Assembly (NCBI GenBank): GCA_038046765.1
Contig: JBBSVN010000002.1
Span: forward strand, 57,929-121,928
Origin: Candidatus Micrarchaeota archaeon
Lineage (GTDB): Archaea > Micrarchaeota > Micrarchaeia > Anstonellales > Bilamarchaeaceae
Direction of reading: 5' to 3'
DNA length: 64,000 nt
Shown: piece after piece, positions 12,968 through 20,020 of the stretch
Layout of the letters: the number at the start of each line of letters is the position of its first letter
Position numbering within the stretch: the first letter of the stretch is position 1
Position numbers and translations under genes: made by a program
The notes under the pieces: model-generated
Databases searched by the model: none
What the model was told of the DNA's origin: nothing
Seen by the model: only the letters and a program-made list of their open reading frames with translations

Positions 12968-13228
12968 TTATTCAATTAATTTTTTTCGAATATCCTCTAT
13001 CAAACTTGCTAAGTACTTTCCTTTTTCAGTAAGCTTGATTATTCTTTTCTTACCTATTATTTCTGTTGTAACTATCCCATCTTTTTCAAGTTTGGGTATA
13101 AAATTAGCTATAAACACATAAGTTACGTTTGCTGATTTTGCGAGTTTTGAGAGATACCAATCAATGTTCTGATCACGTAGCGTTACAAGTACTCTACACG
13201 GTTTTTCCCTTAAAAAAGAGTCAATCAT
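12968..13228 (-). CDS. Winged-helix (MarR-like) transcriptional regulator
   Basis: YLSKLAKSANVTY…LEKDGIV…GKKRIIKLTEKG. Confidence 0.8.
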   Translation of the reverse strand: MIDSFLREKPCRVLVTLRDQNIDWYLSKLAKSANVTYVFIANFIPKLEKDGIVTTEIIGKKRIIKLTEKGKYLASLIEDIRKKLIE

Positions 13229-13297: not shown

Positions 13298-13598
13298 CGC
13301 CTCCACCGCGATTTTCAAGTCTTGACGTTTTGCGTCTTGCGTTTCGTTCTAAGAATTATCGCAAGGCTTCCCGATTGAAAGAAGAATTTCTTTCAATGGG
13401 CGCAATGAACGTTGCGATGTTCATTCGCGTTGACCAAGACCTTTACCTTTGCCGCAAGAAATTGCTCTGTCAAAAGTAATGGTTTTGAACACGGATTATA
13501 AGATTTCTGCTAATTTATATTAGCCGCAGTCTTACGTCCTTTTGGCTCTAGATACCAAATCATTTGGCATCTATAAATCCAGGTTAGACTATGGAGGC
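13298..13598 (-). tRNA. tRNA-Arg(GCG) with three introns: D-loop 20b/21 (13541-13575, 35 nt), canonical 37/38 (13505-13523, 19 nt), T-loop 59/60 (13312-13483, 172 nt)
   Basis: Removing the introns gives a 75-nt cloverleaf: GCCTCCA/TGGAGGC acceptor stem, GTCT/GGAC D stem, TAAGA/TCTTA anticodon stem with loop CT-GCG-GA, CCGTG/CGCGG T stem with TTCAAAT. The junctions form BHB or relaxed BHB motifs. Confidence 0.92.
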
Positions 13599-14075: not shown

Positions 14076-14333
14076 ATTTCATACGATGTCGCAGTTGATT
14101 TGAAAATATACCTAGAAGATGTTACTAAAATTAACGAAGTAAAAATAGAAGTAGAGAAAATAGGAAAAGTCCAGAATATGCGAGAAGAGGAACTAGGATT
14201 TGGTATTAAGACACTTAAATTAACTATTTTACTTAATGATTCTGAAGGCGGCATGGATGCTGCTGAAGAAAAAATTAAAAATATAAAATATGTTAGCGAA
14301 CTTGAAGTCGAAAATATTACTCGAATTTCCTGA
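14076..14333 (+). CDS. ef1b: Translation elongation factor 1-beta
   Basis: YDVAVDLKIY…EEELGFGIKTLKL…DSEGGMDAAEEKI. Start uncertain; probably ATT at 14076 after a GGTGA RBS. Confidence 0.9.
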   Translation: MSYDVAVDLKIYLEDVTKINEVKIEVEKIGKVQNMREEELGFGIKTLKLTILLNDSEGGMDAAEEKIKNIKYVSELEVENITRIS

Positions 14334-14367
14334 TTATTTACTATATTATAAGTCAATTGGTGATTAT

Positions 14368-15051
14368 TTGGTAGAAAAGAAAAAAGAACATCAAAAAGAA
14401 CAACAAGTCAAGAAACAACCTGTCAAGGAAGAAAAAGTAAGTGACAATCCAGAATTTAAGGGTATTGTTAGAATTGCAGGAAAAGATGTACGAGGTAATG
14501 TCCCTCTTAAACGAGCACTCTTAAGAGTAAGAGGTATTGGTTCAACAACGAGCGTTATTATTTCTAAAATCATAAATAATGAACTTAAAATTTCACCAGA
14601 TAAGTTGTCAGGTGACCTTAAGGATGAAGAAATTGAAAGTATTGATAAGTTACTTTTTAGTATTCATACACATAACTTGCCTTCATACTTGATGAATAAA
14701 CAATCTGATTTTATTGATGGTAGTTCAAAGCATTTTATCATGAACGATCTTTTATTTTCAACTAAACAGGATTTAGAGCGTGAAAAAAAACTCTATACCT
14801 GGAAGGGTTATAGGCATTCTTACGGACAAAAAGTCCGAGGTCAAAGAACTAGAAATACTGGTAGAACTGGTATGGCGGTAGGTGTTCTTAGAAAATCTAT
14901 TATTGGTGCAGCAGCCGCTGCAGCAGCTCCTAAAGAAGGGGCAGGTGCACCAGCAAAGGCAGCACCAGCATCAGGAGGTGCGGCAGCACCAAAGGCAGCA
15001 CCAGCCGCAAAGGCAGCAGCACCAGCAGCAAAACCAGCTGAAAAGAAGTAA
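14368..15051 (+). CDS. rps13: 30S ribosomal protein uS13 with Ala/Pro/Lys-rich C-terminal tail
   Basis: GIVRIAGKDV…VRGIG…WKGYRHSYGQKVRGQRTRNTGR. TTG start after GGTGA. Confidence 0.95.
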   Translation: MVEKKKEHQKEQQVKKQPVKEEKVSDNPEFKGIVRIAGKDVRGNVPLKRALLRVRGIGSTTSVIISKIINNELKISPDKLSGDLKDEEIESIDKLLFSIHTHNLPSYLMNKQSDFIDGSSKHFIMNDLLFSTKQDLEREKKLYTWKGYRHSYGQKVRGQRTRNTGRTGMAVGVLRKSIIGAAAAAAAPKEGAGAPAKAAPASGGAAAPKAAPAAKAAAPAAKPAEKK

Positions 15052-15078
15052 TATTAATTCAAACCAAGGTGTTTATTG

Positions 15079-15627
15079 ATGGGAGATCCACCAAAATTGA
15101 GAAACAAATATGAAAAACCAAAGATGTTATGGGATAAAGATAGGCTTGATGAAGAAAAAACCTATAAACGAGATTATGGTCTTAAAAACATGCGAGAACT
15201 TTGGATATGTGTCGCGCTATTAAAGAAATATCGAAGAGAAGCAAGAAGGTTGCTATCTGTAAGCGATGAAATTCGTACTAAAGACCAGGTAAAAATACTA
15301 TCTAAAGTTGCAAGACTTGGAATACTTAAGGATGGCGCAACTCTAGATGATATTCTTTCATTAAGTGTAAAAGATGTTCTTGAAAGACGATTACAAACTA
15401 TTGTAAAAAGACAAGGTCTTGCGAAATCTATGGCACAAAGTAGACAATTAGTGTCCCATGGTTTTATATCTGTAAAAGGGAGGAAAGTAACCTCTCCTAG
15501 TTACATCGTAACTATTGATGATGAAAAAATGCTCGGCTATGCAAAAGAAATCGATTTGGAGGCAAAGCCGACCACAGAAACAACTAAAGTTGACCAAACA
15601 ACTGCGGCAGTAGCCAAAGGTGAATAA
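15079..15627 (+). CDS. rps4: 30S ribosomal protein uS4
   Basis: MGDPPKLRNKYEKP…YGLKNMRELW…LERRLQT…RQLVSHG. Confidence 0.96.
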   Translation: MGDPPKLRNKYEKPKMLWDKDRLDEEKTYKRDYGLKNMRELWICVALLKKYRREARRLLSVSDEIRTKDQVKILSKVARLGILKDGATLDDILSLSVKDVLERRLQTIVKRQGLAKSMAQSRQLVSHGFISVKGRKVTSPSYIVTIDDEKMLGYAKEIDLEAKPTTETTKVDQTTAAVAKGE

Positions 15628-16221
15628 ATGGCAGAAGTAAAAGAAAAGAAAGAACACAAGGAAGTTTCAAAGAATACTACGAAAGATACTAAAGAAAATC
15701 ATAAAGAGACAAAGGTTAAAGAAACTGTTAAAGAAACTCCGAAAGAGGCTCCAAAAGAAGCTCCAGCAGAAGTATCGAAGGAATCTGCTACGCAAGTTGC
15801 TGCAGTATCTGCTCCAAAAATCGAACCTCCAAAAAGAAAATCCCGATATGCAGTTTTACATGTCTTTTCTTCTAAAAATGATACTATTATTACTGCTACT
15901 GATGTTAGCGGTGCCGAAACACTCGCATGGGCAAGTGGTGGTATGGTAGTTAAGGCAGATCGAGAAGAAGGTAAACCATATGCTGCAATGCAGGCTGCAT
16001 TAAAAGTTGTTGGTAATTTAAAAGATAAGGGTGTAACTCATGTTCATATCCGAATTCGAGCTCCCGGTGGTTCAGGAATAAAAACTCCTGGTTCGGGTGC
16101 GCAATCTGTTGTAAGAACTATTGCAAGAAGCGGTATTCGAGTTGCAAGAATAGAAGATGTAACTCCACTTCCAACTGATTCAATGAAAAGAAAAGGTGGA
16201 CGAAGAGGAAGACGAGTCTAG
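15628..16221 (+). CDS. rps11: 30S ribosomal protein uS11 with K/E/T/P-rich N-terminal extension
   Basis: [12 protein letters not shown]…[12 protein letters not shown]…[23 protein letters not shown]. Confidence 0.96.
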
Positions 16222-16232
16222 GTGCTATTTTC

Positions 16233-16811
16233 ATGAAGGTTGATTTTGAAAAAGAACAAGCAAATCGGATACAATTTTCACTAGTTGGTGTTAGTCCAAC
16301 CTTTGCAAACGCAATTAGGCGATACGGTATGATGCGTATTCCAGTAATGGCAATTGATAACATCACCATCTATGAAAATACCTCCTCTATGTTTGATGAG
16401 TACTTAGCACAGCGGATTGGTTTAATTCCTCTTGTTACGCCTGCTAAAATTCCTGCAGAATCTGAAGCAGTTTTTATTCTTGATGAAGTTGGTCCAAAAT
16501 TAACAACTTCAAAAGATTTAAAAAGTAGCGACAGCGAAATTGTTCCAGCTCGTGAAAATGTTACAATAATTACTCTTGGCGAAAAACAAAAATTAAAACT
16601 AGAAGCAAAAGCCAAGCTTAATATTGGAGCAACACATGCTAAATATCAATCAGGAATTTTAAGCTACGAAATTGTTGGTGATGATAAATTCATTTTCAAA
16701 GTTGAAAGTCTTTATCATATGCCTACAAGAGAGATTGTAATGCGGGCATGCGACTTAATTGAAGACGATATAACTACTATCGTTAAGGAGTTGAAGAAAG
16801 TTGTTAAGTAA
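16233..16811 (+). CDS. rpoD: DNA-directed RNA polymerase subunit D (Rpo3)
   Basis: FANAIRR…IPVMAID…ENTSSMFDEYLAQRIGLIP…HAKYQ; follows rps11. Confidence 0.95.
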   Translation: MKVDFEKEQANRIQFSLVGVSPTFANAIRRYGMMRIPVMAIDNITIYENTSSMFDEYLAQRIGLIPLVTPAKIPAESEAVFILDEVGPKLTTSKDLKSSDSEIVPARENVTIITLGEKQKLKLEAKAKLNIGATHAKYQSGILSYEIVGDDKFIFKVESLYHMPTREIVMRACDLIEDDITTIVKELKKVVK

Positions 16812-16878
16812 TTTCTTTTTTTATATTCTCTAATTCAAATATATATGCTTTTTAAACTTTCTTAGTTCTTTAATAATT

Positions 16879-17205
16879 ATGGTTAGTGCATTAAAGAAAC
16901 AGCAAGAAGATAAAAATTTATTCACTACGTTTAGAGTTGGAGATCGCGAGAACGGGGATCTTATTTTTGTAAGTGGAGACGTTAACAGAAACGATCTACT
17001 AAGAAGTATTAGAAATCCCGCATCTCGAGATAAGGTCATTAATAATATGATTAAATTAAATGGATCAGACCTATCGCTCCAAGTTATCCATTATTTAGAC
17101 ATGATGGGTGGATATGCAATAATTGTCCGAGAAAAATTAGGTCAAAAATCTCCCGATATGCTTGCTGCAGTTCCAAAGAAAATTAAGAAAGAAAGGAAGA
17201 GCTAA
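16879..17205 (+). CDS. Hypothetical protein (108 aa)
   Basis: ORF with an upstream TTTAAA box, filling the gap before the convergent top6A. Confidence 0.6.
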   Translation: MVSALKKQQEDKNLFTTFRVGDRENGDLIFVSGDVNRNDLLRSIRNPASRDKVINNMIKLNGSDLSLQVIHYLDMMGGYAIIVREKLGQKSPDMLAAVPKKIKKERKS

Positions 17206-17242
17206 AAGCTACCAGCCAAATGCCACTAGCTAAAGGCTAATA
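17201..17242. repeat. Degenerate heptamer array (6 units)
   Basis: gctaaaa gctacca gccaaat gccacta gctaaag gctaata, between convergent genes. Confidence 0.75.
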
Positions 17243-17243
17243 A

Positions 17244-18341
17244 CTACGGTAACCATTTCTTTTTCTTAATCTTGTCATTAATATATTCTCCAACGAACGT
17301 TAACCTTTCTCCTTGTAACGCATCTTGTTCAATCTTTTTCTTAGTTGATAAAACCTGTTTTAGGTTACTTACCCATTCTTTATGTACGTTTATCCAAGGA
17401 TAACTAAGCATTTCTTCAGCTCGTTTTACGTCTACATCCTTTGCTTTAATAGTTAATTTTTGTAAAAATTCAAATTCTTGAATATCATCCATAGTAACTC
17501 CTAAAAACTTAGCTTCAGGAACTGCAAAATCACGACCTAAATAAGCTAGGTTCATACTTCCGGTTTTAATTGTCCAGTATATATACCATCCCCAGGCATC
17601 ACAGTCCATAAGTGTATAGACTGGTAATTTTTTATCAGCTAGTTTTCTAAGTAATCGCCTGGTTCCACGTGATGCTTGCCCCTTTGGTGTAACTAGAATA
17701 CAGTTTTCTTTTTTCCAGAATTTATCTTCGTTTAATCTCTGCCAAAGTGCATCTTTTTCAACTACTAGAACGTAATCTGCTTCTAAGTTTTCAATAGACA
17801 TTCCATTATCTACATCGCTTGGGATCATCCATCCGCTTCGACCTTGTTTACTTAAATCAATGACATTTTCTTCGCCTCCAAATTTATCACGAATAGTCAT
17901 TGCGCCAGCAACTACCCCTTTTCGGTCTGTTGTTAAGTGCATATCCTCTCGTTTTATCCCTAAGCCAACTTCTAAATCCTCAACAAGCGCATTCGATTCG
18001 CTTTGTTCGTTAAATAAATCTTCATCTAAATCTTCTCCAAGTGTAAACTTAAGCTGGTAAAATAAACCTCTGATACTTGTGTGTAATCCCTCATCAATAA
18101 ATTTTTTGGTTTTTGTTGCGATTGCGACAGTTTGCATAAAAGTTCTTGCCTGTGCAACACTTAGGAATCTCCTTATTTCCTGTCTGTTGCCTAGTCTAAG
18201 GCATCCGACACTTTCATCATAAATCGTATTCGCTTTTGATCGTACTACTGTTTCAAAAGTAGGGGTATTATCAGCTTTTATTTCACCTACCATCTTTTTT
18301 CCCATATCTTCTAATTTTTTTACTGCGATCTTATCAGTCAT
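17244..18341 (-). CDS. top6A: DNA topoisomerase VI subunit A
   Basis: SIRGLFY catalytic Tyr region, VLVVEKDA, PKGQASRGTR, DCDAWGWYI, IEQDAL. Confidence 0.96.
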   Translation of the reverse strand: MTDKIAVKKLEDMGKKMVGEIKADNTPTFETVVRSKANTIYDESVGCLRLGNRQEIRRFLSVAQARTFMQTVAIATKTKKFIDEGLHTSIRGLFYQLKFTLGEDLDEDLFNEQSESNALVEDLEVGLGIKREDMHLTTDRKGVVAGAMTIRDKFGGEENVIDLSKQGRSGWMIPSDVDNGMSIENLEADYVLVVEKDALWQRLNEDKFWKKENCILVTPKGQASRGTRRLLRKLADKKLPVYTLMDCDAWGWYIYWTIKTGSMNLAYLGRDFAVPEAKFLGVTMDDIQEFEFLQKLTIKAKDVDVKRAEEMLSYPWINVHKEWVSNLKQVLSTKKKIEQDALQGERLTFVGEYINDKIKKKKWLP

Positions 18342-18367
18342 AAATATTCACCAGTGATTGGCAATAA

Positions 18368-20020
18368 TTATTCACCATCAGTTTCCTCTTCTTTTCCCTC
18401 ATTCTTTTTCTCTTCTGTTTTCTCCTCTTTTTTGCCTTCGGTTTTAGGTTCGTCCTTTTCAATTAATGAATATTTTTCAACAACAATTCTCATAAGCTGT
18501 TTCTTTAATTCTTCTTTTGCGTCCTTACCTTTTGCGCTAGTTAATTCAGTTAAATCCTTTGAAATCTGTTCGACATATCGCGAAATTGCTTTCTTCTTGC
18601 TTTCCATTTCATGTACTCTTCTTTTTCCGCTAATATGTTTTTGAATACCGCGCGCAGCTTCCATTATCGCATTTCTTATTTCATCCATTACATCTTCTTC
18701 AGTGGAAATTGCCTGCTTTCCAGCACCAGTATATGGGACGTGGACGCTAACTAAGTTCACAAGTACTGCAATAGGTTCGTCTTCAAATGCCTTTAAGTCG
18801 TATCGTCCCCAGTCTATGTTTCTTATCGATTCGGTTATTGCACATCCGCCTCCATCAAAAAGTAACGGGACTCGGTTTGCAAATCTCATCGTTTCTCCTT
18901 TTTTGCCGGCTTCGGCTACTCCGCCACCATATGCAATCGCGGATTCAACCATGAACGGTACTCCTCCCTTATAAATTTTAGGAGACCTTTCTGCCACTAC
19001 CAAAAATTCCGGATTAAATATATTCATGAAAGATTTTTGAATTTGTTCTGCGCCTATCGGGACAATCGAATCTGTTTCAGGAGCGATCCACTTTACTTTT
19101 TTAAATGACTGAACAATCTGTTCCGCATCCTCCCAGCTCATATCGTCCGGGTCTTTTTCAAAGTTTACTGTTGGAACCAGTGTTGATAGTTCGTTAACCT
19201 TATTTGCACTTACCCTGGTTAAACAGTTTTGTAAAAATGAGCCTATTTTTTTGTATTCCCGTTGCGATTTTGCCAAATCAAGTAAATCATGGGCTCCAAT
19301 TCCAAGTGGATGTGGTTTTATTTCTTTTGGTCGTGGCGGATTCGCTTCTATTGATCTAGGGAAAACTACTGTTTCCCCGTTAGGTTCAGTCAGAATTATT
19401 TTTGTATGTGGGTTAGCTAAAGCAGTCCGTCTTAAATATTCATAAACACCATGGTTGCTCCTTTCATATTTTACATCCTTAAATTCTGCTTCATAAGAAA
19501 GACCTGTTTTTTCTAAGCAATCTTCTTCAACCAAATTAATCAGGTCAGCGTGATTAGTTTTAAAATCAATTCCTATCTCGCAGGATATTTTTTTTCCTTT
19601 ATAATAGGAAATTGCTCTTGGGTGTTTTCCTGTTGTAAGTAAAGAGTACATTGTACAACCAGCTGCACCAATTCCCTGTTGACCTCTTTGCTGTACATAT
19701 CTATGGAATTTAGTTCCTGCTAACATTTGTCCAAGTGCTTTACCTAAATGTGTCTTTGGGATACCTGGCCCGTTATCCTCAACAGTTAAGCCATAATGAT
19801 CTTCAGATAATTCCTTAACTCGAACTTGTATTTCTGGAAGTACTCCTGCTTCTTCACAAGCGTCTAAACTGTTTGAAACTAATTCGTGAACGACTGTTGT
19901 AAGGCTTCTTACCTTGCCGCTAAATCCTAGCATTTGTTTATTCTTTTTAAAGAATTCAGCTACGCTATGCTCCTTAAAGTTGGAAAATATCTTATCGTGT
20001 CCGTCTGCCATAATTATCAC
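18368..20020 (-). CDS. top6B: DNA topoisomerase VI subunit B
   Basis: SVAEFFKKNKQMLGF, ELVSNSLDACEE, DNGPGI, QQRGQQGIG, RFANRVPLL. True start may be the ATG three codons in. Confidence 0.97.
   Translation of the reverse strand: MIIMADGHDKIFSNFKEHSVAEFFKKNKQMLGFSGKVRSLTTVVHELVSNSLDACEEAGVLPEIQVRVKELSEDHYGLTVEDNGPGIPKTHLGKALGQMLAGTKFHRYVQQRGQQGIGAAGCTMYSLLTTGKHPRAISYYKGKKISCEIGIDFKTNHADLINLVEEDCLEKTGLSYEAEFKDVKYERSNHGVYEYLRRTALANPHTKIILTEPNGETVVFPRSIEANPPRPKEIKPHPLGIGAHDLLDLAKSQREYKKIGSFLQNCLTRVSANKVNELSTLVPTVNFEKDPDDMSWEDAEQIVQSFKKVKWIAPETDSIVPIGAEQIQKSFMNIFNPEFLVVAERSPKIYKGGVPFMVESAIAYGGGVAEAGKKGETMRFANRVPLLFDGGGCAITESIRNIDWGRYDLKAFEDEPIAVLVNLVSVHVPYTGAGKQAISTEEDVMDEIRNAIMEAARGIQKHISGKRRVHEMESKKKAISRYVEQISKDLTELTSAKGKDAKEELKKQLMRIVVEKYSLIEKDEPKTEGKKEEKTEEKKNEGKEEETDGE

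Follow-up and report, generated by a model that had tools for sequence, protein, structure and literature searches.

The 172-nt T-loop intron of a micrarchaeal tRNA-Arg gene: a repeat-derived intron with an inserted twin-hairpin element

We have studied a long tRNA intron of a Candidatus Micrarchaeota archaeon; the window is the whole stretch of 64,000 nucleotides analysed in contig JBBSVN010000002.1, and positions in the tRNA gene refer to it. The intron is composite: a repeat-derived intron of about 112 nt, which we call module A, contains an inserted 60-nt element with two hairpins, element B. B is absent from paralogous and orthologous sites, it is dispersed in both orientations and it inserts precisely, mostly 3' of an A. 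Its preferred targets are rich in hairpins, among them further copies of B itself and the ends of IS200 elements, and it is best read as a non-autonomous DNA element which targets hairpins. It is very probable that the 172-nt intron is a passenger, a composite due to the precise insertion of dispersed B and tolerated through splicing; this judgement does not extend to the enzyme involved. There is no evidence for a new RNA: what is notable is a self-nesting mobile element with twin hairpins, together with tRNA introns which come from dispersed repeats.

The tRNA-Arg(GCG) gene is found on the minus strand (13598-13298) and is interrupted by three introns of 36, 19 and 172 nt (Table 1). Its exons joined in silico give a 76-base tRNA-Arg(GCG) cloverleaf with ARAGORN; the unspliced gene is detected neither by ARAGORN nor by an Rfam search. 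A preliminary description of this DNA had proposed a 172-nt T-loop intron on the minus strand (13483-13312), far longer than the other two. Both points are confirmed, and the spliced cloverleaf sets the position at 59/60. In an unconstrained fold of the T-arm with the intron we find the T-stem, a 3-nt bulge and a helix of 4 bp, the motif being relaxed on its 5' side. From its sequence this is an archaeal tRNA intron of the endonuclease-spliced type, at 59/60 and with a BHL motif, for which splicing is predicted. The genome encodes a splicing endonuclease of epsilon2 type (E 2.5e-129 to 4FZ2). The ARMAN-2 enzyme cleaves a 59/60 BHL intron in vitro (PMC3239211), and relaxed substrate recognition has been reported for the epsilon2 type (PMC12397907). 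There is also a second splicing-endonuclease-like gene in the genome, of 175 aa (G000:C10:76880-77122; L211:1459-1983, minus strand; E 1.4e-9 to 1A79). In its protein the catalytic histidine position appears not to be conserved. Judged by eye, a small helix-turn-helix-like gene lies downstream of the tRNA (window 12968-13228, minus strand), and genes for a ribosomal protein, RNA polymerase and a topoisomerase VI-like protein are found nearby at 14290-20020.

Table 1. The tRNA-Arg(GCG) gene, its introns and the parts of the 59/60 intron (window positions)
Feature	Position	Strand	Basis
tRNA-Arg(GCG) exon 1	13577..13598	-	In-silico splicing, ARAGORN cloverleaf
D-loop intron, 36 nt	13541..13576	-	Boundaries inferred from splice-motif geometry and orthologues without D-loop intron
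Exon 2, bears anticodon GCG	13524..13540	-	In-silico splicing
37/38 intron, 19 nt, strict bulge-helix-bulge	13505..13523	-	Sequence, in-silico splicing
Exon 3; bases 54-57 (13489-13486) in the 4-bp splice helix	13484..13504	-	Fold of T-arm and intron
59/60 (T-loop) intron, 172 nt, relaxed (hBH/BHL) splice motif	13312..13483	-	In-silico splicing, fold
Module A, 5' part: conserved hairpin (13479-13471/13451-13443) and left flank of B site	13430..13483	-
Element B, 60 nt, no target duplication	13370..13429	-	Absent from aligned site in 4 paralogous introns
First hairpin of B (variable arm), foot of 3 bp, single bulged base on the 5' side	13401..13429	-
Second hairpin of B (constant arm), foot of 3 bp, single bulged base on the 3' side	13370..13400	-
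Host intron remainder, common to paralogues; 3' strand of splice helix (13317-13314) at its end	13312..13369	-
Exon 4	13298..13311	-	In-silico splicing

The 172-nt intron folds better than 200 out of 200 shuffled sequences (z -5.5). Most of this signal comes from the insert: B alone has z -5.6, the intron without B only -2.4. The two strong hairpins proposed earlier do fold, with pair probabilities mostly above 0.9. The motifs proposed for three nested enclosing stems are all present at their positions, but as enclosing stems they have a pair probability of 0.00. Forcing them costs 7.8 kcal/mol (-44.6 vs -52.4), and their 5' arms pair locally instead, 13479-13471 with 13451-13443, with a probability of about 1. 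We searched the 172-nt intron for several motifs: it has neither box C nor box D, as had been claimed, and it lacks an ACA end, the group I R/S elements and the hammerhead core. The final base is A, in agreement with the claim that the terminal G of a group I intron is missing. An Infernal search of Rfam, which the preliminary description had suggested, gave no match either at the gathering threshold or with E values up to 10. Homologues and covariation, the absence of which would have counted against the RNA proposed there, are present. A guide RNA of the C/D or H/ACA type is rejected by the absence of boxes C/D, of an ACA motif and of an Rfam match; a group I intron or small ribozyme by the absence of core motifs, terminal G and Rfam match. 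Archaeal tRNA introns are expected to circularise after excision; in the circularised 172-nt intron the longest stop-free stretch has 44 codons.

Four other T-loop introns of the genome align with the 172-nt intron and all four are empty at the B site. With B taken out, the intron agrees with its paralogue on contig C1 at 95 of 113 positions. The hairpin of module A is paired in 98.8% of the cells across 15 homologues and 5 of its 11 pairs have changed on both sides; three of these five changes separate two sub-types and may represent a single event. Our model of module A (R2) has matches in 40 of the 99 genomes of the family. In the genome studied here the whole A-type intron is found at 59/60 in five different tRNA genes. 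We placed the 30 top loci of module A with a tRNA heuristic: 9 are in T-loop introns, 2 in other introns (1 antisense), 6 adjoin tRNA genes and 13 were unplaced; by eye about 5 of the latter are in tRNA genes which the heuristic missed, and others are intergenic. In the tRNA introns among these loci the module is found 10 times in sense and once in antisense. Some intergenic copies are flanked by direct repeats. A search of genomes with the A pattern gave 14 matches, 12 of them archaeal and the two bacterial ones due to chance; a viral collection gave 2 matches, by pattern alone. Several copies lie immediately after tRNA 3' ends (L126, L128, L130, L136), two of them with a duplicated 3' part of the tRNA which resembles an integration scar. 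In the whole genome the heuristic finds T-loop introns in 11 of 20 tRNA candidates, with varied, repeat-like sequences; two further A-type T-loop introns are found by similarity.

The copies of element B measure 48-64 nt and consist of two hairpins which abut; each hairpin has a foot of 2-3 bp and one bulged base in the outer strand. The loops vary freely and the arms are near-perfect complements. In 15 seed copies 98.7% of the cells pair, and 8 of 21 pairs have changed on both sides; the two bulged bases do not covary. In the stems of 55 copies we count 1078 Watson-Crick pairs, 1 G-T, 5 A-C and 5 of other kinds, and RNA wobble is not apparent; these copies were detected with a model and a detector which require pairing, so that the counts lean towards structure. 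Mean column identity is 71% and the symmetry of the ends is imperfect. In five chosen B-rich genomes the constant arm recurs exactly 15-44 times each, against 0-2 times for a reversed-pattern control.

Matches to the model of B (R1) are present in 58 of the 99 family genomes, with up to 49 matches when both strands are counted. Outside the family the same model finds B in 2 of 124 genomes of the phylum. Fifteen of 73 copies, a set which includes one duplicate row, are in tRNA genes: 10 lie in sense and 2 in antisense, and 3 could not be oriented. Others are intergenic, or are found nested in a further copy of B, either within its loops or between its arms. B is fully matched in 5 of 30 loci of Y1 transposases, in three cases within the left-end hairpin of IS200. 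It is mostly non-coding; in two protein genes (L068 and L176) we find it in frame, with 54 and 57 nt. The L068 gene appears by eye to code for a lectin-fold variable protein. In metagenomes 9 of 14 matches to the B pattern are real and 5 due to chance. We rejected the 6 matches of the viral collection: all are coding look-alikes without hairpins. The genome studied here has a second B copy (G000:C5:116884-116939, L153), a few bases beyond a tRNA 3' end and on the opposite strand. Stand-alone IS200 tnpA elements (L088, L095, L110, L103) have B in or near their left end; the leader of L095 shows an additional hairpin pair in reversed order. IS ends of a similar kind which carry B are present in contigs of all four sequencing runs. 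A multi-copy PATE-like element (L221, L226, L251, L252, L257, L259; genome G004) carries B, which thus also spreads by hitchhiking.

Hairpins might also arise from local replication slippage or fold-back copying, or gene conversion might disseminate them, without any enzyme of their own. Near-perfect arms with freely variable loops would fit such an origin, as would the hitchhiking of B within larger repeated elements. However the same constant arm and bulge geometry recur, with precise ends, at unrelated sites in many genomes, and the detector found no B in 90.6 kb of shuffled sequence: we consider this origin hardly credible.

A recognisable empty version is available for 21 of 72 B sites and is missing for the other 51. 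Among the 21 the insertion is precise in 18 and one base off in 3; a target duplication is the best fit in none. Of 49 copies which could be oriented, 42 are preceded by an A; beyond this 5' A no fixed target tetranucleotide, nor any other motif of 4-6 bases, is shared. When the target flanks are rejoined they fold better (mean -8.6) than permuted flanks (-7.0, p 2e-4) or random non-coding DNA (-4.9). Pairing across the insertion point itself is not in excess: it is found in 36 of 72 sites and in 267 of 562 positions of random non-coding DNA. In one sub-type the last base of B equals the flanking base, and there a precise insertion is indistinguishable from a 1-base duplication. In this sub-type (L161, L162, L164-L168, L170) the flanking base is complementary to the central base in 12 of 13 cases; it is possible that the target is read by base pairing.

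From 30 loci we obtained 24 other, orthologous tRNA-Arg(GCG) genes, and 12 of them have no T-loop intron. In the other 12 the intron has 31-148 nt and belongs to several unrelated types; four are A-type, and in one of these B sits elsewhere in A than it does here. The corresponding point is empty in the A-type intron of a genome from that orthologue's genus. These classes were judged by eye, and two anticodon labels and three A flags assigned by the script were corrected. Such a mixture of variable, empty and unrelated introns is unlike what is expected for a conserved functional RNA. In the contigs of four DNA runs, the identical filled intron is present in a contig from a second study; none of these contigs, in which rare variants are dropped, has a joint lacking B, and neither transposition nor excision was observed as an event. 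A third repeat family appears in the tRNA-Arg orthologues (L275-L297): a short hairpin of a T-run and an A-run with a conserved tail. Many introns of the anticodon loop and the T-loop are filled by it, some of them with copies in opposite orientations, and B inserts there too.

The preliminary description had proposed a novel intron-hosted (circular) RNA or the remnant of a mobile element. A functional structured RNA, circular or not, seems to us very unlikely. The fold of the intron (z -5.5), the covariation of both modules, the predominance of sense copies of A in tRNA introns and the presence of an identical intron in the second study would be expected from it, and the 10:2 sense bias of B in tRNA genes could reflect selection at the RNA level. 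But the homologues and their covariation belong to dispersed DNA repeats, which are also found outside introns and in antisense; orthologous sites are empty or occupied by unrelated repeats; the stems have no G-U excess, there is no guide or ribozyme motif, and the outer fold proposed is unsupported. The second possibility is supported, though in another form: small non-autonomous elements, each of them intact, are nested here, rather than a large one having left a remnant.

The spread could instead have taken place through RNA: through the splicing endonuclease and a ligase, pieces of excised intron would become joined to other RNAs and then be copied back into DNA, a route which has been proposed for intron transposition. 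The presence of the A-type intron at 59/60 in five tRNA genes of one genome, the sense bias of A and B, the A copies with duplicated tRNA 3' ends and the second endonuclease-like gene all fit this route. B itself lacks a splice motif, however, and it is found in antisense, in intergenic regions and in IS ends, with stems which lack G-U pairs. As a general explanation we find an RNA route very unlikely; it may apply to A, even where it does not to B.

We return to the reading of the intron as a passenger of DNA elements. Its backbone is the hairpin repeat A, found throughout the family and here at position 59/60 of the tRNA, and the smaller non-autonomous B has inserted later. The epsilon2 endonuclease would remove all 172 nt. 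Since the two hairpins which B contributes are closed on themselves, the relaxed splice motif is left intact and the nest would do no harm. It is likely that splicing makes the nest harmless and that selection maintains no RNA function of the intron after excision.

B itself would move as folded single-stranded DNA. With its two hairpins joined end to end it would be a circle in the shape of a dumbbell, and the cut would fall between the two bulged bases. Excision, and insertion into hairpin DNA which is transiently single-stranded, would be the work of a HUH (Y1) transposase supplied in trans. The substrates of IS200/IS605 transposases are typically bulged hairpins and no target duplication is produced. 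Tentatively, and somewhat short of an even chance, we propose that B is moved in this form by a HUH (Y1) enzyme, most plausibly a TnpA of IS200 type.

TnpA of IS200 type is present in 25 of the 99 family genomes, and 7 Y1 proteins score as IS200 TnpA. In the genome studied here, which is 90% complete, there is no Y1 transposase above the cut-off. Presence of Y1 and of B are not associated: Y1 is found in 14 of 58 genomes with B and in 11 of the other 41 (p 0.82). A post-hoc split according to a high copy number of B gives 12 of 21 and 13 of 78 (p 4e-4), with related genomes which are not independent. The IS200 ends of the 26 Y1 loci inspected, among the matches listed, are unlike B in sequence, and IS ends may be only targets of B. 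Two other partners were rejected: RAYT is above the cut-off in none of the 99 family genomes, and DUF559 is found in 4 of 99, weakly. Among 244 ORFs near B (95 loci) the recurrent mobile genes are Y1 TnpA (2 genomes) and, by eye, an integrase-like gene on the tRNA side (2 genomes). No gene is bracketed by the two arms of B in 28 loci. A search among Y1, RAYT, DUF559 and the ORFs which neighbour B gave neither a cognate enzyme nor an autonomous form of B. Many IS200 elements (L082-L111) have a conserved structured leader immediately upstream of the start of tnpA.

The closest known counterparts of B are the SMR-A repeats of Haloquadratum. In PMC3119063, SMR-A of Haloquadratum walsbyi are described as short, multi-copy, non-coding and free of transposase, with no target duplication and with ends unlike those of known transposons. 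They insert in the near-terminal palindromes of IS605-type elements and of PATEs, terminal-only derivatives of IS200/IS605. All these features recall B. By description the two also differ. SMR-A measure about 110 bp and bear prominent inverted repeats at their ends, and copies of one type are more than 95% identical (PMC3119063). B has 48-64 nt and two abutting bulged hairpins with variable loops, nests within itself and is found in tRNA introns and genes. PATEs share with B two palindromes, the absence of duplication and a size down to 52 bp, and their palindromes resemble IS605-type ends; terminal sequence flanks these palindromes, and a short motif serves as target (PMC3119063). B cannot be classed with them: its hairpins are unlike the local IS200 ends (Y1 loci, among the matches listed), it ends at the foot of the hairpins and has a target rule of one base. 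REPINs also have two short inverted palindromes with compensatory changes, are extragenic and insert into existing copies (PMC3116915). A REP or REPIN nature of B is rejected by the lack of RAYT above the cut-off in the 99 genomes and of a spacer between units, and no arm-bracketed gene was seen. Rickettsia palindromic elements are likewise tolerated in frame in genes, but they have about 150 bp and code for peptides (PMC10969869). A classical MITE does not fit B, for which no target duplication is found.

For the intron as a whole, the BHL introns of ARMAN-2 are similar in their 59/60 position, relaxed motif and epsilon2 enzyme (PMC3239211). Unlike these and the introns of Thermoproteales, the intron sequence studied here is also dispersed as DNA outside tRNA genes, where it hosts nested elements. 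In Thermoproteales, Fujishima in 2010 reportedly described intron transposition, with related introns in different tRNA genes. Our literature search, with most subscription journals outside its coverage, gave no description of elements like B or A in Micrarchaeota. A survey of archaeal insertion sequences does not cover such repeats in the parts examined (PMC13343696).

Two cautions follow. Fold z-scores and covariation in such introns can stem from DNA elements, and tRNA genes of this kind are overlooked by standard finders.

The arrival of archaeal tRNA introns is called an open question in a 2026 preprint (10.64898/2026.10.13.758758), and the mobilisation of SMR-A is left unexplained, as "enigmatic", in PMC3119063. 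Here the sequence of an intron can be traced to repeats which are also present as free DNA, and one tRNA site is known both filled and empty. For this reason both the arrival of introns and a mobilisation of the SMR-A type become testable, with substrates of 50-60 bases. It is conceivable, although we hold it rather doubtful, that B is the unit of an undescribed transposition of hairpins into hairpins, with a dumbbell intermediate, structure-directed targets and self-nesting, and that A-like repeats are a DNA source of new tRNA introns. If this is true, such repeats would provide a traceable route for the arrival of tRNA introns.
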